A stretch of DNA of 64,000 nucleotides, taken from the NCBI GenBank assembly GCA_049967655.1, contig JBMFSH010000004.1:78521-142520 (forward strand). Direction: 5' to 3'. Below the pieces are notes generated by a model that saw only the letters and a program-made list of their open reading frames with translations, searched no databases and was not told the DNA's origin. This DNA is from Acidobacteriota bacterium. Its GTDB lineage: Bacteria > Acidobacteriota > UBA4820 > DSQY01. Below, piece after piece: positions 1 to 48,580 of this stretch. The position numbers and the translations under genes are program-made. How positions within the stretch are numbered: position 1 is the first letter of the stretch; every line of letters starts with the position of its first letter.

Positions 1-335
1 CGCTCCTTGAAGAGGTACTTGATGCTGTGCTTGTAGACGAGCAGGTTGGGTTCGTTCAGCCGGTGCACCTTGATGCAATCCCGGTCGTACCACTCGATCC
101 AGCCCCTCAGCTCCTCCCCGTCGGTCAGGACGATGATCATGGGGGTCTTGCTGCCCATCTGTTTCAGGTAGTAGAAGTTCTCGGCGTTGGTCTGCTCGGG
201 CGGCACCTGTTTGCGGCGGGCGGGCACGAAGGCGCCGGAGGCCGGGGCCGGCTCCTCCTCTTTCTCCTCGCGGGGCTCCCGCCGGGCGGTCTTATAGTCA
301 CGCAGATTGGGACGGATGAGCTTGCGGTCTGGCAT
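1..335 (-). CDS. Hfq/Lsm-fold RNA chaperone-like protein (Acidobacteria-type paralogue), 3' end runs off the window
   Basis: Not in the ORF track. Manual translation: [11 protein letters not shown]...[67 protein letters not shown]. Sm1-like (L.DGEELRG.I..YD) and Sm2 (LVYKHSI, cf. Hfq YKHAI) motifs. AAGGAG RBS upstream of the ATG at 335. Confidence 0.75.
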
Positions 336-26376: not shown

Positions 26377-26393
26377 TTGGCACCCGTCTTGCT
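26377..26393 (+). promoter_or_regulatory. sigma-54 (-24/-12) promoter of the regulator-degP operon
   Basis: TTGGCACCCGTCTTGCT, GG-N10-GC spacing, 35 nt before the ATG. Confidence 0.75.
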
Positions 26394-26428
26394 TTTGAGA
26401 TATTCTCGCGGATAGGAGGTGTGCCAAA

Positions 26429-27847
26429 ATGGCCTTGGGTTCGATTCTGATTCTCGAAGACGAGGAAGAAAATCTTCGAAGCCTGACCCGGGCCCTGGAG
26501 AAGGTGGGCTATGAGGTGCACCCGTTCCAGCGTTCCGACGAAGGCATGGCTTACTTCAAGACCCACGATTCCGTGGATCTGGTCCTGACCGACCTCAGGA
26601 TGCCGGGCATGGACGGCATGGAGGTGCTCCGCCAGGTGAAGCAGTCGGAGAACTCGGTGGGTGTGCTCCTCATCACCGCCTTCGGCTCCGTCGAATCCGC
26701 GGTGCAGGCCATGAAGGTCGGCGCCGACGACTACCTGGCCAAACCCGTCGACCTCTACGAGCTGAGGAGGCGGGTGCAGGCCCTCGTGGAGAAGCGCCGC
26801 CTGAAGGTCGAGGTGGACGAGCTGAAGGCGAGGCTGGACGAGCGGTTCGGCTTCGAGAACATCGTCGGCAACTCGGACCCCATGCGCGAGGTCTTCCAGC
26901 AGATCCGGATGGTCGCCCCCACGCGTGCCACGGTCTTCATCCAGGGCGAGTCGGGAACGGGCAAGGAGCTCATCGCCAACGCCATTCACCAAAACTCCGA
27001 GCGCAAGCGGAACCGGTTTCTTCCCATCAACTGCGCCGCCATCCCGGCCAACCTCATCGAGAGCGAGCTCTTCGGTCACGAGAAGGGCTCCTTCACGGGG
27101 GCCGACAAGGCCCACGCCGGCAAGTTCGAACAGGCCAACGGCGGCACCCTCTTTCTCGACGAGATCGGCGAGCTCTCCCTGGACCTCCAGGCCAAGCTGC
27201 TCCGCGTCCTGGAGGAGCGCGTGGTCACCCGCGTCGGGGGGACTCAGCCCATTTCCGTGGACGTCCGGTTCATCACCGCCACCCACCGGGACCTCACCAA
27301 GATGGTCCAGGAGTCGAAGTTCCGCGAGGACCTCTTCTACCGGCTGAAGGTGGTCGAGATCGTGATCCCGCCGCTGAGGGAGCGGCTGGACGATATCCCC
27401 CTCCTCGCCCACTCCTTCATGGCACACTTCAACCGCGAACACGGCAAGAACATTTCGAGCATTCATCCCGAAGTCCTGCGGGCCCTGGGGAACTACTCCT
27501 GGCCCGGGAACGTTCGGGAGCTGAAGAACGTCGTGGAACGCATGGTCATCTTCGGCACGGGGGAGGAGTTGCTCCCGCGCCACCTCCCGCCCGAGCTCAA
27601 GGCGGGCCCCGATGCCGGTCCCATAGGGCCACCTCTGTCGTCCATCCCGGGACGCCGTGCCTTTGCGGAGCCAGGGCGGCCGGTCCAGGCCTTGGACGAA
27701 CTGGAAAAACAGGCCATACTAAGGGCTCTCGACCAGACGCACGGCAACAAAACACAGGCCGCGCGCGTATTAGGGATCGGCATCCGGACTCTGCACCGGA
27801 AGCTCAAGCAATACCTCGTTGAGGAACAGGAAAGGAGCATTCAATGA
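26429..27847 (+). CDS. sigma-54-dependent response regulator (NtrC/AtoC/ZraR family)
   Basis: Receiver ([11 protein letters not shown]), AAA+ ([39 protein letters not shown]) and Fis-type HTH. Confidence 0.93.
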
Positions 27848-29361
27848 AGATAGCAAAAACGTTGATGTTCGCAGCCGCTGGGAGCCTGTTGATCCTCATG
27901 GGCTTCGGACTGGCTCAACTGAGGAACGTCAGCGCACCCACCGCCAAGGCCGTTACGAACGCAGCCGCCGTCAGCGCCACTCAGGCCGCCACCAACGCCA
28001 TGGGGCTGCCGAGCTTCGCCGACATCGCCGCCAAGGTGAATCCGGCGGTGGTCAGCATCACGGCCATCTCCGTGGAAAAGAGCCAGGGGATGGGCAACAT
28101 GCCCCAGCAGTTCATGGGCCCCTTCGAGTTCTTCTTCGGAAACCCCCACCAGCAAGGGCCCCAGGGGCAACCTCCCGTGCAGGAGGCCGGCGGCAGCGGC
28201 TTCATCATCAGCCCGGACGGCTACATCCTCACCAACAACCACGTGGTGGACGACGCCACCAAAGTGACGGTGACCTTGGATGACGGGCGCACCTTCGACG
28301 CCAAGATCGTGGGCCGGGACAAGGAGACGGACGTGGCCCTCCTCAAGATCGACGCCACCAATCTGCCCACCGTCCCCCTCGGCGATTCGAGCGCCATGCG
28401 ACCAGGCGACTGGGTCATGGCCATCGGCAATCCCCTCATGTACAGCCATACCGTCACGGTGGGCGTGATCTCCGCCAAGGGCCGCCGCATCTCCTCCAAC
28501 TCCCTGGATGACTTCCTCCAGACCGACGCGGCCATCAACTTCGGCAACTCGGGTGGTCCCCTCGTCAACGTCCAGGGCCAAGTCATCGGCATCAATACCG
28601 CCATCACCCGCAGCGATTATATGGGCCGGATGGTGGAGGGCATAGGCTTCGCCATCCCCATCAACATGGTCAAGGGCGAGTTGGAGCAACTCAAGACCAC
28701 GGGCAAGGTGGAGCGCGGCTACTTGGGCGTGCGCGTCAGCGCCGTGGACCAGGACGCCAGGGATTACTTCAAAAAAGCCTACGGCCTCGACCTGAAGGGC
28801 GGTGCTCTGGTCCAGAGCGTGGACGACGGCACGCCCGCCGCCAAGGCCGGCATGCAGAAGGGTGACATCATCGTCTCCGTGAACGGAGAGCCCATCAAGG
28901 ACAGCATGGAGCTGACCCACAAGGTCGCCGGCTATCCGCCCGGGAAGACCATCACCCTGGAGGCTTACAAGGACGGCAAGAAGAAGGAGTACCGGGTGAC
29001 CCTGGGCAACCGCGCCAAGGCGCTGGCCGGCCAGGAGTCGGGCGGAGAGAGCCAGGGCGAGAAACCCGCCAAGGACGTGCTGGGCATCCAGGTGCAGAAC
29101 CTCACCCAGGACAATCGGATGGCCTACCGGATCCCGCAGGACGTCCAGGGCGTGGTGGTGGTCGGGGTGGATCCCTCATCCAACGCCTTCACCAAGGACA
29201 TCCGTGAGGGAGCGGTCATCTCCGAGGTGAACGGCCACATGGTCAACAACGTGGAGGACTACCGGAAGGCCATCGCCAACATTAAGAAGGGCGACCCCGT
29301 TTCGGTCTACCTCCAGGACGGCCAGGGCGGCGGCTTCTACGTCTACTTCCTCGCCGGCTGA
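27844..29361 (+). CDS. degP: HtrA/DegP (Do) family serine protease with two PDZ domains
   Basis: [37 protein letters not shown] overlap with the regulator. Confidence 0.9.
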
Positions 29362-41617: not shown

Positions 41618-42684
41618 CGGCGCACCTGTTGTCCTCCTTCCTTTCGGAGCTTTCGCCGGCCCAGAGCCCCGGCTACGCTTGGAGTGTCAGCACCCCGGCC
41701 GGCCGCTTGGCGGGGGGCTTCGGCGGCTTCCGGATCGTGGAGCCGACGCGGGCGCCGGTGGAGGAGTCCACCCTTTTCGACCTGGCCTCCCTGACCAAAC
41801 CGCTCGCCACGGCACTCATCGCGCTCCGCGCTTTCGATGCGGGCCAGTTGGACCTGGAGGCCCCCGTTGCCGCGGCGGGCCGCCCACACTTCACCCTGCT
41901 GGATCTCCTGAGGCACGAGGCCGGGTTTCCCGATTGGCTCCCCCTTTACGGGTGCGCTCCCTCCCCAGCCGCTCTCAAGCCATGGCTGCTGCGGGAATGT
42001 CCCAGGGAGGAACGGGCGGGATTGCGAGCGGTCTATAGCTGCGCCGGCTACGTCCTCCTGGGAATGCTGCTGGAGGAGGGCCTGGGGGCCCCGATGGAGC
42101 AACTTTTCGAGCGCTACGTCTCGATCCCCCTCGGCCTGCCCCCGCGGGAGGCCTGTTTCTCCCCCCCGGCGGCCTGGCGCGATCGATGCGCGGCGGAGGA
42201 GCTGGATGGGGGTTACGAAGCCCGGATGGCGCACCCCTTTGGTGCCACTCCTCCTCCCTTCCGCTCCGGCATGGCCTGGGGGGAAGTCCACGACGGGAAC
42301 GCCCGCTTCCTGGGCGGAGCGGCGGGCAACGCCGGCCTCTTTGGCACCCTCGCGGCGGTGGAGAGGCTATGCCGCGCCTTCAGCCCCCAGGACCGATTCC
42401 TCTCGCCCGAAGCCCTTCGTTTGGCCTGGGAGAGCCCCCGCAGCGAGGGCCGGCACAGAACGGCCGGTTGGAAGGCGGCGGGCTCCGAGGGCTGGTGGGC
42501 CAACGCCCTCCTCCCCGAAGGGGCGATCGGGCACGAGGGCTTCACCGGGACGGGGGCCTGGATGGAACCCGAGACCGCCAGAACTTATATCTTACTTACC
42601 AACCGGATTCATCCCCGGCACCCGGGGACGGACTTCGGAAGGGTGCGGGCCGCCTTCCTGAAGGCGGCCAAGGAGCTCCAGTGA
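41614..42684 (+). CDS. Beta-lactamase-family serine hydrolase
   Basis: FDLASLTK (SxxK), LLRHEAG, YS..GY, VHD.NA, GNAGLF, GHEGFTG, LTNR.HP. Confidence 0.85.
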   Translation: MTAHLLSSFLSELSPAQSPGYAWSVSTPAGRLAGGFGGFRIVEPTRAPVEESTLFDLASLTKPLATALIALRAFDAGQLDLEAPVAAAGRPHFTLLDLLRHEAGFPDWLPLYGCAPSPAALKPWLLRECPREERAGLRAVYSCAGYVLLGMLLEEGLGAPMEQLFERYVSIPLGLPPREACFSPPAAWRDRCAAEELDGGYEARMAHPFGATPPPFRSGMAWGEVHDGNARFLGGAAGNAGLFGTLAAVERLCRAFSPQDRFLSPEALRLAWESPRSEGRHRTAGWKAAGSEGWWANALLPEGAIGHEGFTGTGAWMEPETARTYILLTNRIHPRHPGTDFGRVRAAFLKAAKELQ

Positions 42685-43736
42685 GAGACCGCTACACTCC
42701 GAGCCTCGCCTTCCTCATCGCTCTCGCGCTGCACGTGTTCTTCCTCCTCCTCATCTCGCACCAGTACCTCGCCTCGGCCACCAACCCGAGGAGCCTGAAT
42801 GAAGGGTCCCAGCGCCTCACGACCATCAACGGCCGTCCGGTCCGCTTCATCTACGTCAAGGATATGGTTCCCGCCAAAGAACCGCCCATGGATGCCTCGC
42901 GACTCTCGGACATGAATCGGCGAGGGGCCAGCCCCTACCCGAAGAAGGGAGAATCTCCCGATCCCACCTCCTTCGGCCAGAGCCCCATCCGCCAGTCCGG
43001 CGGCCCTGGGGGCGCCCCGGACACCAGGCCCTCCGTCCCGCCCTCGCCGGCCTCCCCCAGCCCCCGCCCCGGACGCCCGGGGAGTGTGGGGCGCGAGATG
43101 GCGCAGATGGAGCGCCCCCGGAGCCCGCGCGGCGAGAGCCGGCAGGATCGTCCGGCCAACAACCAGGCCTCCAAACCCTCGTCCACCCAAGGTCAGAATG
43201 AGCTTCAGCAGGGGAAACCGACCAACGCGGAACGCGGGTTGCCCGTGGGAGGAGAGGCCATCCAGGAACCCGCGTCCTCCCTTCCAGGTTCGCCTTCACA
43301 GACGCCCATCCAGCCTCGTCCGGGGCTGGGCACGCAGCTCGAGAGGATGATGCTCGGCAGCCTCCAGGGGGGCTACAACAACCCCAACGCCAGCCGGCTC
43401 AATACGGGGTCCCTCTCCTTTGACACCGCCGCCTGGGACCTCGGCCCCTACGCCCGGCAGGTGCAGGAGCGGGTGCAGGGCAACTGGCACGTTCCCGAGG
43501 CGCAGATGGTGCTGAGACAGAAGGGGTGGGTGGCCATACGCTTCAACGTCCAGAAGGACGGCACCATCACGGACATGCAGATCATCCGGCCTTCCGGCAT
43601 CCCCTCCTACGACCAGGCGGCGGTGGATGCGCTGCGCTCCTCCAACCCGCTGCCTCCCCTTCCCTCTCAGGTCACAGCGCCCAAGCTCGGTGCCGTCTTT
43701 CGGTTTTTCTACAACCTGGAGGACGAGGGCGACTGA
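42681..43736 (+). CDS. TonB/TolA-like energy transducer
   Basis: N-terminal TM helix with LH, Pro/Ser-rich linker, C-terminal W...F....DG....SG...D.AA..A.....P.PPLP. GTG start overlaps the upstream stop. Confidence 0.8.
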   Translation: MRDRYTPSLAFLIALALHVFFLLLISHQYLASATNPRSLNEGSQRLTTINGRPVRFIYVKDMVPAKEPPMDASRLSDMNRRGASPYPKKGESPDPTSFGQSPIRQSGGPGGAPDTRPSVPPSPASPSPRPGRPGSVGREMAQMERPRSPRGESRQDRPANNQASKPSSTQGQNELQQGKPTNAERGLPVGGEAIQEPASSLPGSPSQTPIQPRPGLGTQLERMMLGSLQGGYNNPNASRLNTGSLSFDTAAWDLGPYARQVQERVQGNWHVPEAQMVLRQKGWVAIRFNVQKDGTITDMQIIRPSGIPSYDQAAVDALRSSNPLPPLPSQVTAPKLGAVFRFFYNLEDEGD

Positions 43737-43820: not shown

Positions 43821-43835
43821 TGGCATGCCCATTGC
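43821..43835 (+). promoter_or_regulatory. sigma-54 promoter (sRNA 1)
   Basis: TGGCATGCCCATTGC, GG-N10-GC. Confidence 0.75.
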
Positions 43836-43845
43836 TCATATGTAT

Positions 43846-43896
43846 CTCTCATACCTCCCTCCATACCTCCGAGCCCCGACAGGGGCTCATTTATTT
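43846..43896 (+). ncRNA. Candidate sigma-54-dependent CU-rich sRNA 1
   Basis: CATACCTCC twice, then hairpin GAGCCCC-GACA-GGGGCTC and ATTTATTT. Begins ~12 nt after the -12 box. No ORF. Confidence 0.6.
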
Positions 43897-44038
43897 GGGT
43901 AGCCCTACCCGCAGAGGAGTGAGTCCAAAAGGACACGCCGTGACTCACCCACCCCCAGCAGAGCGCCTTTATGGCGCATGCGGCCAAAATGGCACTGGCC
44001 GCCTTTTGAGACTGCCATATATTTTCATGGCGTTTCGA

Positions 44039-44053
44039 TGGCACGGCCATTGC
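44039..44053 (+). promoter_or_regulatory. sigma-54 promoter (sRNA 2)
   Basis: TGGCACGGCCATTGC(A), a full consensus match. Confidence 0.8.
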
Positions 44054-44064
44054 AAGGTAAAAAT

Positions 44065-44121
44065 ATCCCCTCCTCCCTTCCATTCCTCCAGCGGGAGCCA
44101 CAAGCTCCCGCTCCTCTTTTT
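44065..44121 (+). ncRNA. Candidate sigma-54-dependent CU-rich sRNA 2
   Basis: CCCCTCCTCCCTTCCATTCCTCC, then hairpin AGCGGGAGC-CACAA-GCTCCCGCT and CCTCTTTTT. Confidence 0.6.
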
Positions 44122-44145
44122 CTGGAACTGGAACTGGAATTGGAA
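44122..44145. repeat. Hexamer tandem repeat (CTGGAA)x4, last unit degenerate
   Basis: ctggaa ctggaa ctggaa ttggaa. Confidence 0.7.
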
Positions 44146-44249: not shown

Positions 44250-44759
44250 CTACTCTTCGAGGTTGAATTCCTGGAAGTCGAAGAAGTATCCCGTGCGGGT
44301 GAGCACGTCCACCTCGAGCTGGACGATGGCGGTGTGGCCGTCCTCGATTTCGAGGAATCGCGAAAACATGGTCCGCCCGTCGGGATTGTCCAGCGTCTCT
44401 ACGAGGTGCTTGTAGAAGTCGCTGACCTCATCTTCGAGCTTTAGGGCCGTGAAGAGGCGGCGGTAATCATCCTGATAATCGCGCTTCTGCCCCGAGCTTT
44501 CCAGCATGGAGACGCCTTTGGAGAGCCATTCGGGGCTGGGCAGCGTGGTTCGAACGGGGCTGGTGTCGAGCTTCTTCTCCGCCCGCCAGGTTTTGAGCCG
44601 CGACTCCAGGTAATCCACGTGGCCCTGCTCCTCCTTGGCCAAAGACTCGAAGAAATGGCGGCCCTTGGGCTCCTGCGACTCCTTGGCGGCCTGCAGGTAG
44701 TGATCTCTGACCTTGGTCTCGTAGTTGAGCGCGGTGACGATGGCTTCCTCGACGTTCAT
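44250..44759 (-). CDS. Ferritin-like/rubrerythrin family protein
   Basis: A...E....Y, LA.EE.GH, LE......Y, EIEDGH diiron-type motifs. Confidence 0.85.
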   Translation of the reverse strand: MNVEEAIVTALNYETKVRDHYLQAAKESQEPKGRHFFESLAKEEQGHVDYLESRLKTWRAEKKLDTSPVRTTLPSPEWLSKGVSMLESSGQKRDYQDDYRRLFTALKLEDEVSDFYKHLVETLDNPDGRTMFSRFLEIEDGHTAIVQLEVDVLTRTGYFFDFQEFNLEE

Positions 44760-44907: not shown

Positions 44908-44983
44908 GCGGGAATAGCTCAGTTGGTAGAGCACAACCTTGCCAAGGTTGGGGTCGCGGGTTCGAATCCCGTTTCCCGCTCCA
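44908..44983 (+). tRNA. tRNA-Gly (GCC)
   Basis: GCGGGAA acceptor stem, AGCTCAGTTGGTAGAGC D arm, anticodon loop TTGCCAA, GGTTCGAATCC T arm, encoded CCA. 76 nt. Confidence 0.97.
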
Positions 44984-44998
44984 GAAGAGCGCAGCGAG

Positions 44999-45226: not shown

Positions 45227-46540
45227 ATGAAACCCCAGAATGTCCTCATCATGGGAGCCGCGGGAAGAGACTTCCACAACTTCAACGTCTTCTTCCGGGG
45301 CAACAATTCGTACCGCGTGGTCGCATTCACCGCCACCCAGATTCCCGACATCGCCGGACGCAAATATCCCGCTGCCCTGGCGGGCGAGGGTTATCCCGAG
45401 GGCATCCCGATCTACGACGAGAAGGAGATGCCCGAACTGATCCGCAAGGAGAAGGTGGACCTCGTGGTCTTCGCCTACTCCGACGTCTCCCACGAGACGG
45501 TCATGCACAAGGCCTCCACGGCCATCGCCGCCGGTGCCGACTTCATGATGATGGGCGCCGACCACACCATGATCTCCTCCAGCAAGCCGGTGGTCTCCAT
45601 CTGCGCCGTCCGCACGGGATGCGGCAAGAGCCAGACGACCCGCCGGGTCTGCGAGATCCTGAAGGCCGCCGGCAAGCGCGTGGTGGCCATCCGCCACCCC
45701 ATGCCCTACGGCGACCTGGTGGCCCAGCGCGTGCAGCGTTTCGCCACGCTCCAGGATCTGGACAAGCACCACTGCACCATCGAGGAGCGCGAGGAGTACG
45801 AGCCGCACATCCAGCGCGGCGTGGTGGTCTATGCCGGCGTGGACTACGAGGCCATCCTCCGCGAGGCCGAGCGCGAGGCCGACGTGATCGTGTGGGACGG
45901 TGGGAACAACGACCTGCCCTTCTACCGGCCTGACCTGGAGATCGTCGTCGTGGATCCCCACCGTCCGGGCCACGAGATCGCCTACCACCCCGGCGAAGCC
46001 AACTTGCGCCGCGCCCACGTGGTGGTCATCAACAAGATCGACACGGCCAACGGCGACGACATCGACGAGGTGCGCTTCAACATCCACCAGCTCAACCCTA
46101 AGGCCATGGTCGTGGACGCCGCCTCGCCATTGAAGGTCTCCGATCCCGCCGCCATCACCGGCAAGAGCGTGCTGGTCGTGGAGGACGGCCCCACCCTCAC
46201 GCACGGAGAGATGCAATACGGCGCCGGCGTGATGGCCGCCCGGAAGTTCGGGGCGGAGGAGTTGGTGGACCCGCGGCCCTTCGCCGTGGCCTCCATCCAG
46301 GCCACCTACGAGAAGTACCCGGACATCGGCATCCTGCTGCCAGCCATGGGCTACGGGGACCAGCAGATCAAGGACCTGGAGACCACCATCAACTCCACCG
46401 AGTGCGACCTGGTGGTGATCGCCACGCCCATCGACCTGGGCCGCATCATCCGCATCAACAAGCCCTCGGTCCGCGTCCAGTACGAGCTGCAGGAGATCGG
46501 TCAGCCCACGCTGGAGGTGCCGCTCAAGCGGTTGCTGTAG
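45227..46540 (+). CDS. cDPG synthetase-like P-loop protein, probable arginine synthetase (ArcE family)
   Basis: IMGAAGRDFHNFN, AFTATQIP, AVRTGCGKSQT, RHPMPYG, EEREEYE, WDGGNND, EDGPTLTHG, LPAMGY. First gene of an operon with arcC and OTCase. Confidence 0.75.
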   Translation: MKPQNVLIMGAAGRDFHNFNVFFRGNNSYRVVAFTATQIPDIAGRKYPAALAGEGYPEGIPIYDEKEMPELIRKEKVDLVVFAYSDVSHETVMHKASTAIAAGADFMMMGADHTMISSSKPVVSICAVRTGCGKSQTTRRVCEILKAAGKRVVAIRHPMPYGDLVAQRVQRFATLQDLDKHHCTIEEREEYEPHIQRGVVVYAGVDYEAILREAEREADVIVWDGGNNDLPFYRPDLEIVVVDPHRPGHEIAYHPGEANLRRAHVVVINKIDTANGDDIDEVRFNIHQLNPKAMVVDAASPLKVSDPAAITGKSVLVVEDGPTLTHGEMQYGAGVMAARKFGAEELVDPRPFAVASIQATYEKYPDIGILLPAMGYGDQQIKDLETTINSTECDLVVIATPIDLGRIIRINKPSVRVQYELQEIGQPTLEVPLKRLL

Positions 46541-46547
46541 GCCTGCC

Positions 46548-47546
46548 ATGAGGAAGAAGAAAGCGCTGGTGGCCTTCGGGGGCAACGCCCTCATCAAGGC
46601 CGGCGAAAAGGGCACGCTCCGCGAGCAGCTCGCCAACGCCGACGAAGCCGCCCGCCAACTGGTTCCGCTGCTGGAGAACTACGCCTGCGTCATGCTGGTG
46701 CACGGCAACGGTCCGCAGGTGGGCCAGAACCTGATCCGGGTGGAGGAGGCGGTGACCAAGGTCCCGCCCCTCCCCCTGGATGTTTGCGTAGCCGAAACCC
46801 AGGGCAGTATGGGATACCTCATCGAGAAGGCGCTCTCAAACGAACTCCAGCGCCGGGGCATCCAGAGGGACCTCATGTCCGTGCTCAGCCAGGTGGAGGT
46901 GGACGCGGAGGATCCCGCTTTCCGGAATCCCACCAAACCCATCGGCCCCTTCTACACGGCCTACCGCGCCAAGCACCTCATGGAGGTGGAGCGCTGGCCC
47001 ATGGTGGAGGACAGCGGCCGGGGCTACAGGAAGGTCGTCCCGTCGCCCAAGCCCAAACGGATCCTCTCGGTGGGGGCCCTGAAGGCGCTCTACGAGACGG
47101 GCTCCATCATCATCGCCGGGGGAGGGGGAGGCATTCCCGTGGTGCGGGAGCTGGACGGCACCCACCGTGGCGTGGAGGCGGTCATCGACAAGGACCGCAC
47201 CTCCGTCCTGCTGGCCTGCGAGCTGGATGCGGACGAGATGCTCATCATCACCTCTGTCCCCTGCCTCTACGTGAATTTCGGTAAGCCCGACCAGAAGGCC
47301 CTGTCCGTGGTCTCTCTGGAGGAGATCCTGAGATACCAGAAGGAGGGCCAGTTTCCGCCCGGCTCCATGGGACCGAAGGTGGAGGCGGCGGTCCAGTTCC
47401 TGGTCCGCAAGGGCGGTAGCGTCGTCATCACCGACGCCGCCCACCTCCAGGCCGCCTCCGAGGGCAGGGCCGGAACGCGCATCATTCACGAAAAGACCGA
47501 GAAGGCCGAGAAGATCCACCGCCTGGAGACGGTCAAGCGGGGCTGA
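46548..47546 (+). CDS. arcC: Carbamate kinase
   Basis: AFGGNAL, HGNGPQVG, PTKPIGPFY, GGGGIPV, EAVIDKD, GSMGPK. Confidence 0.95.
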   Translation: MRKKKALVAFGGNALIKAGEKGTLREQLANADEAARQLVPLLENYACVMLVHGNGPQVGQNLIRVEEAVTKVPPLPLDVCVAETQGSMGYLIEKALSNELQRRGIQRDLMSVLSQVEVDAEDPAFRNPTKPIGPFYTAYRAKHLMEVERWPMVEDSGRGYRKVVPSPKPKRILSVGALKALYETGSIIIAGGGGGIPVVRELDGTHRGVEAVIDKDRTSVLLACELDADEMLIITSVPCLYVNFGKPDQKALSVVSLEEILRYQKEGQFPPGSMGPKVEAAVQFLVRKGGSVVITDAAHLQAASEGRAGTRIIHEKTEKAEKIHRLETVKRG

Positions 47547-47647
47547 AGGACGCGGCCGCTTGCCGGCATGACCGAGCCGTCCGCGAGGCCTTCGCCATTC
47601 AAGCGATAGGAGGCGCCCGTCGCCGCCGACCCTAGGAGGAGCCTAAC

Positions 47648-48580
<933 letters not shown>

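Follow-up and report, generated by a model that had tools for sequence, protein, structure and literature searches.

The Qrr1-5 RNAs of Vibrio are small RNAs transcribed by sigma-54, the genes for OmrA and OmrB are arranged in tandem, those for GlmY and GlmZ are not adjacent in tandem, and degP is a sigma-E gene. OmrA and OmrB of enterobacteria are described as a paralogous pair under a two-component regulator that represses outer-membrane and TonB-dependent receptor mRNAs, namely FepA, CirA and FecA (bioRxiv 10.64898/2026.06.26.734639), and MicA and RybB as sigma-E envelope stress RNAs which reduce outer-membrane protein synthesis (PMC1804206). GlmY and GlmZ are reported as homologous small RNAs with sigma-54 promoters, activator sites and an IHF site, acting with GlrR and IHF (PMC3045617). 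Pxr of Myxococcus and Cystobacter is described as a sigma-54-transcribed RNA of 108 nt with three stem-loops, encoded beside its activator, and the Cystobacter pxr paralogs as a tandem, each with its own sigma-54 promoter (PMC5568312). Occlusion of ribosome-binding sites by anti-Shine-Dalgarno (anti-SD) C/U seeds is the mode of action given for the NfeR1/alpha-r14 'cuckoo' RNAs and AbcR1/2 (PMC10746234). For the Acidobacteriota, only four annotated small RNA families appear in Table 1 of a 2022 review (PMC9029176).

The two short RNAs predicted here, from the spacer behind an Acidobacteriota tonB gene, share something with each of these systems and, judged by their sequence, the pair is a member of none. 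Like OmrA and OmrB as described, they form a paralogous pair with outer-membrane receptor repression as the predicted output; OmrA and OmrB are OmpR-driven, whereas the Acidobacteriota pair has sigma-54-type promoters, shorter RNAs, a C/U anti-SD seed and no Rfam match, and shows neither the OmrA/OmrB sequence family nor OmpR control. The predicted output, less outer-membrane protein within an envelope regulon, is also that reported for MicA and RybB, but those depend on sigma-E rather than sigma-54, there is no sequence match and the RseB domain was not found in the source genome. GlmY and GlmZ offer the parallel of a homologous pair from sigma-54 promoters with (here candidate) activator and IHF-like sites; in the published account, however, they are long, structured and activate glmS. 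The promoter type is that of Pxr and Qrr and the tandem arrangement that of Cystobacter pxr, but with 50-57 nt, a single stem and a candidate activator 17 kb away the RNAs differ from Pxr as described, and have neither the multi-stem structure nor the sequence family of Pxr or Qrr. The seed type resembles that of NfeR1/alpha-r14 and of Campylobacter CJnc230; in the reported 'cuckoo' RNAs CCUCCUCCC lies in the loops of three hairpins under LsrB/NtrC control, whereas RNA 1 has a single hairpin and one linear 5' tract with a different core, CCCUCCAU. Nor do the RNAs resemble decoys of the CsrB/RsmZ type, given that the unit-1 tract is G-free in 23/25 orthologs and CsrA was not found in the source genome. 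What they do have is the -24/-12 promoter at conserved spacing, in a genome with rpoN, of a sigma-54 small RNA gene, and, as expected of a base-pairing RNA, a conserved seed that stays unpaired, a terminator hairpin followed by a U tail (weak in the source genus) and Hfq in the genome. The locus is thus predicted to encode a conserved, uncatalogued pair resembling OmrA/OmrB or MicA/RybB but under sigma-54. The Acidobacteriota are abundant, and for these two RNAs a candidate target, a candidate activator and a candidate binding site can all be named.

Two cassettes between tonB and a ferritin-like gene

The window (the whole stretch of 64,000 nucleotides that was analysed) contains, between tonB and a ferritin-like gene, a spacer of 513 bp rather than the 510 bp of the first-pass annotation, and the two sigma-54 cassettes which that annotation had placed there were found at its positions, with the same 218-bp offset. 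In each, a C/U tract free of G begins about 12 nt past the sigma-54 motif (TGGCATGCCCATTGC at 43821 and TGGCACGGCCATTGC at 44039) and leads into a hairpin with a U-rich tail. The inventory needed amendment in two respects: the tails, called T-rich, are weak in the source genus (ATTTATTT, CCTCTTTTT), and conserved enhancer-like dyads between the units had been overlooked. The features are as follows.

42681 to 43736, plus strand: tonB (Pfam TonB_2), last gene of a lolCE-clpC-bamA-skp-lpxD-fabZ-lpxA cluster, where lpxD, fabZ and lpxA are presumed names, given from the sequence rather than a family scan
43821 to 43835, plus strand: sigma-54 -24/-12 promoter of RNA 1, matching the consensus, TGG-A and TTGC invariant in 25/25 orthologs
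43847 to 43896, plus strand: predicted small RNA 1, about 50 nt, its putative 5' end 12 nt past the -12 element; unpaired C/U tract 43847-43870 with the invariant core, hairpin 43871-43888, then U-rich tail
44039 to 44053, plus strand: sigma-54 -24/-12 promoter of RNA 2, TGGCA and TTGC invariant in 23/23 aligned orthologs
44065 to 44121, plus strand: RNA 2, a predicted small RNA of about 57 nt, made up of an unpaired C/U tract (44065-44089), a hairpin (44090-44112) and a U-rich tail
44250 to 44759, minus strand: ferritin-like gene, the other flank of the spacer

Folding of both predicted RNAs leaves the 24-25-nt 5' tract fully unpaired (mean unpaired probability at least 0.999) and forms a single hairpin, with z-scores of -4.5 for RNA 1 and -6.2 for RNA 2 and none of 200 shuffles equally good. 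A genome-wide search for TGGCAY-N5-TTGC, as had been proposed, returned 24 strict sites against about 5.6 expected; most precede an SD and start codon, and only the two in this spacer lead directly into a G-free run of at least 28 nt. Among four congeneric genomes the transcribed parts are near-invariant while the promoter-to-start spacer varies. The stem of unit 2 is paired in 184/184 cells of the 23/23 orthologs, with compensatory change in 2/8 pairs; no compensatory change was seen in the RNA 1 stem of the ortholog alignment. The earlier remark that no ORF fits also stands, as no conserved ORF was found in the orthologous cassettes, the minus strand included. Assembled RNA contigs from one run (0.10 of words) cover the ferritin-like gene and a tRNA and not the spacer, and since such contigs cannot reveal RNAs of 50 nt, this is no evidence either way.

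Unit 1 is present in 25/25 genomes of the source family, one of uncultured Acidobacteria, its model matching the 24/24 others with E values of 8e-8 or better, and unit 2 in 24/25; the exception, G012, gave only a unit-1 cross-match with the unit-2 model. In G015 a contig end cuts unit 2, and a complete copy lies on another contig. The exact pattern promoter-N10-30-CCCTCCAT finds one copy in each of the 25 genomes and none in the reversed control. The units lie 216-557 bp apart, and unit 1 directly follows tonB in 19 genomes and another gene in 6, which indicates that the pair moves as a block; the genes downstream vary among genera while the cassettes persist. Neither unit was found in five genomes of two sister families, in the nearer of which, represented by four genomes, tonB is followed directly by the next gene. 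Among 28 metagenome pattern matches the unit-1 layout occurs in 13, nine of them with unit 2 behind. The Rfam scan gave no match at gathering score (best sroE, 19.9 bits against 51; eight further loci, 0 matches), so this is not a described Rfam family, and no published description of these RNAs was found in the literature searched, outside which motif catalogues could sit in supplements. Given the invariant promoters, the folds and this distribution, it is very probable from sequence that the cassettes are real sigma-54 RNA genes. Models of the two units cross-match, with scores inflated by the promoter part, which is consistent with the paralogy first proposed; the RNAs seem to have grown apart in targets and upstream control and do not look like redundant copies.

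Three further features adjoin the cassettes. A CTGGAA repeat expansion follows RNA 2 (window 44122-44145) in the source genome only, of the four congeners. A tRNA-like gene (44909-44984) lies upstream of the ferritin-like gene, and repeated tRNA-fragment elements follow in relatives. Window 45227-48580 holds genes for a P-loop protein, carbamate kinase and ornithine carbamoyltransferase.

Predicted pairing of RNA 1 with a receptor leader

Genes were called by a heuristic script (n=2,579), and duplex energies were computed over 2,558 start regions with accessibility ignored. The notion that CCUCC-type tracts pair with ribosome-binding sites is borne out in prediction, where RNA 1 favours start regions (mean -15.6 kcal/mol) over coding controls (-13.0 kcal/mol), and there is a good probability, on such complementarity, that both RNAs act as anti-SD repressors in trans. 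The best partner of RNA 1 in the window from -30 to +15, rank 1 of 2,558 at -31.2 kcal/mol, is the TonB-dependent receptor G000:C4:69899-72889, with Pfam domains CarboxypepD_reg, OMP_b-brl_4 and a weak Plug, which we take to be Oar-like; in a wider window it ranks third. Shuffled seeds bring this receptor into the top 5 in 0/53 cases (median rank 458), and it ranks 278 with the 16S tail and 293 with RNA 2. The predicted duplex spans both SD and AUG, through the pairings CUCAU/AUGAG, CCUCCAU/AUGGAGG and CCUC/GAGG, and sets the invariant core of RNA 1, CCCUCCAU-CC, opposite GAGGUUAUGGAGG, which is present in the 19 orthologous receptor leaders retained after 10 of 29 loci were dropped as paralogs or truncated, a selection made after the leaders were seen. 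An independent pattern finds the site in 21/25 family genomes and 0 in the reversed control. The start region GAGG-N1-3-ATGGAGG is unique to this receptor in the source genome, where AT preceding GGAGG is otherwise rare (24/1,031 SD genes). Four other genera, which are related and not independent, were sampled for start regions, and among these each genome's own RNA 1 ranks the receptor ortholog 2/145, 7/160, 5/155 and 9/144 (top 1-6%). In the sister family, whose genomes gave no RNA 1, 2 of 3 receptor orthologs (G026 and G027) have C in place of T at a position that pairs with the seed, a point in favour of the pairing. The explanation that we favour, as reasonably probable, is that the spacer encodes two paralogous sigma-54-transcribed RNAs that occlude ribosome-binding sites, of which RNA 1 most likely silences this Oar-like receptor; taken by itself, regulation of the receptor by RNA 1 is favoured by a slightly narrower measure, on the strength of the predicted duplex.

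Two other targets were considered and set aside. The neighbouring receptor C4:73310-76114 fell from rank 2 to 22 after start correction, and the orthologs examined have not retained its site; HU/IHF genes pair at just -14 to -25 kcal/mol. Close to its 5' end, the leader of the Oar-like receptor has a further perfect SD (GAAAGGAGGTG), preceded by a sigma-70-like promoter; conservation of this SD extends to both families (L056-L085, L297, L298, L307), and it is possibly a stabilising or standby site.

In a genome of 67% GC, any C-rich RNA pairs with many SDs, and 466 of the 2,558 start regions fall below -20 kcal/mol with RNA 1. The RNAs could therefore be broad anti-SD repressors of many mRNAs, comparable to NfeR1 and AbcR1/2, with the receptor a weak target or none and its leader kept as a double-SD or mini-cistron translation enhancer. 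Several results agree with this: C-run lengths differ from ortholog to ortholog, covariation between RNA 1 and the receptor across genera is not significant (40/120 permutations as good), and in the sister family, G025, where neither RNA was found, retains the full receptor site, while G026 and G027 keep the double-SD layout. The site must then have a reason to persist that is independent of the RNAs, and it predates or does not need RNA 1, which may have evolved to fit a pre-existing receptor leader. However, breadth of pairing leaves the first rank of the receptor and its unique start region unaccounted for, and the putative ATG of the mini-cistron reads ACG in G026 and G027, so that the mini-ORF is not required. 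Broad repression of this kind is judged unlikely, although it is the strongest of the alternatives.

More improbable still is a role as sponges or protein decoys, for a G-rich small RNA, an RNA chaperone or a C-rich-RNA-binding protein, in place of pairing with mRNA start regions. Minimal, unstructured tracts and two divergent Hfq-like genes would suit such a role, as would the results for RNA 2: its complement patterns, counted in 10 genomes, were about as frequent as the reversed controls and had no gene in common, and ortholog pairs taken from four genomes over 800 kb yielded no conserved target. Against it, a genome that is 99% complete yielded neither CsrA nor ProQ, the GGA motifs are on the other strand from the promoter, and RNA 1 mirrors an actual SD-AUG region. 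Least probable of all, the conserved sequence would serve on the minus strand, as a leader or mini-ORF (GGAGG...ATG), or be just a bidirectional terminator, with a nonfunctional plus-strand RNA: the reverse complement of unit 1 does read SD-ATG-GAG, tonB and the ferritin-like gene converge on the spacer and the RNA contigs, uninformative for 50-nt RNAs, do not cover it, but the minus-strand ATG keeps no fixed frame with respect to the promoter (all three are represented, by 13, 8 and 4 of 25), the plus-strand promoters are invariant and the cassettes stay while downstream genes differ among genera.

Upstream sites and a candidate envelope circuit

The dyads between the units, and an activator gene in the same window, are the basis for a proposed control of the pair of RNAs.

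43921 to 43936, no strand assigned: dyad B (GAGTCC-AAAA-GGACAC), candidate activator site of putative role, retained behind RNA 1 in G012
43963 to 43995, no strand assigned: dyad A, two copies of GYGCC-N5-GGCRC in tandem with 18-bp spacing, a candidate enhancer for promoter 2
26378 to 26435, plus strand: sigma-54 promoter (26378-26392) and dyad-A-like site (26421-26435) over the activator start codon, at 1 of 2,558 genes in the source genome
26429 to 29361, plus strand: candidate cognate activator, receiver-AAA-HTH (26429-27847), and DegP/HtrA-like protease (27844-29361), by Pfam; putatively linked to the RNAs

The dyad A copies lie at about -77 and -59 of promoter 2, with the dyad B type further up, and of the 48 positions open to a site in the 24 pairs, 39 carry one; with two mismatches allowed, dyad A is also met upstream of unit 1 in 16/24 controls. 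An IHF-like motif lies at about -29 of promoter 2 in 15/24 pairs, upstream of unit 1 in 0/24 and in 0/4 of the source genus. No conserved DNA was found upstream of promoter 1, which can be 7 bp from the tonB stop; promoter 1 is probably served by sites on its downstream side, either dyad B or dyad A.

A matrix trained on the dyad A sites finds only four tandem sites genome-wide, all intergenic and with 18-bp spacing: promoter 2 itself (by construction), two other Oar-like receptor genes (C39, dyad A at C39:15372) and a gene for a small secreted Lys/Ala-rich protein (C48, dyad A at C48:16160), with a sigma-54-like promoter about 110 bp past dyad A at two of these three other loci. At a looser threshold, 800 kb of relatives' DNA gave three matches, none near a sigma-54-like promoter, and a receptor locus of G004 has a dyad-A match with such a promoter. 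The activator at 26429 has an ortholog in 24/25 family genomes; the half-dyad over its start codon is kept in 22/22 orthologs examined and the promoter in 21/22, and the half-dyad also in 4/4 of a sister family. This conserved site suggests autoregulation and points to 26429 as the likely activator of RNA 2, an assignment that we hold to be rather likely. The site could instead be a short RNA hairpin over the activator AUG and not an activator-binding dyad.

The machinery for such control is encoded in the source genome: rpoN, whose presence the first-pass annotation had made a condition of its reading, 23 full-length matches to sigma-54 activators, two Hfq-family genes and RNase E/G. The 99% complete assembly gave no match for CsrA, ProQ or RseB domains. 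It is suggested that a sigma-54 activator, probably the receiver-type 26429 cotranscribed with degP, would bind tandem dyad A and open promoter 2, aided by the IHF-like site in most genera. Hairpin and U tail would terminate transcription and load Hfq, and RNA 1 would pair over the SD and AUG of the receptor mRNA, so that receptor synthesis falls. The activator would raise DegP, other receptors and RNA 2 while RNA 1 lowers one receptor and, with dyad A also upstream of two other Oar-like receptors and the small secreted protein, the set of receptors in the outer membrane would be remodelled by this circuit. The RNA pair probably belongs to a cell-envelope control circuit of this kind. A stronger version, in which sigma-54 replaces sigma-E for outer-membrane stress and remodelling, the degP-linked activator inducing the protease, alternative TonB-dependent receptors and the RNA pair behind the bamA-skp-lpx-tonB cluster while the RNAs shut off a housekeeping receptor, is speculative and on present evidence doubtful. 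If true, it would represent an independently evolved system like MicA/RybB/OmrAB and a single node in a larger collection of anti-SD RNAs under sigma-54 across the phylum. If the proposed circuit itself is right, it would show convergent evolution of small RNA control over outer-membrane receptors with a different sigma factor; the RNAs, little more than seed and terminator, would be near the smallest possible regulators and a model for small RNAs that arise to fit a pre-existing leader.

The second, divergent Hfq-like gene, with an N-terminal extension, lies at window 1-335 (G000:C4:78511-78855, minus strand), three genes upstream of two receptor genes.

Similar elements elsewhere

In 140 other Acidobacteriota genomes, weak model matches were found in 38. 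Nineteen of these loci were inspected, and four (L162, L170, L164 and L167, from three other families of the phylum) have a single sigma-54 promoter, a short C/U RNA and a terminator; three of the four lie downstream of a gene that we presume, from its sequence, to be htpX-like. These single cassettes may be analogues or remote relatives of the tonB pair.

Within the source genome, a third model match (C4:41048-41126) was rejected as a third cassette, being the lpxC 3' region without a promoter of its own and ranking the Oar-like receptor only 209. The lpxC gene (G000:C4:41048-42038, minus strand) carries a sigma-54 motif, and its C/U-rich 3' region and terminator are kept in three genera and one sister-family genome (L296, L209, L210, L212, L213, L217, L051), which makes it a candidate source of a 3'-derived small RNA. 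From G000:C32:2160 onward (plus strand), an orphan sigma-54 promoter precedes a stretch of about 110 nt that closes with AACCCUCCUAACCUCC plus a hairpin, and this tract ranks the Oar-like receptor leader (C4:69899-72889) 12 of 2,558. At G000:C18:33399 (minus strand; L295), between convergent-looking intergenic DNA and an acetate-kinase-like gene, an RNA-1-like C/U tract is followed by a strong hairpin, without a sigma-54 motif.
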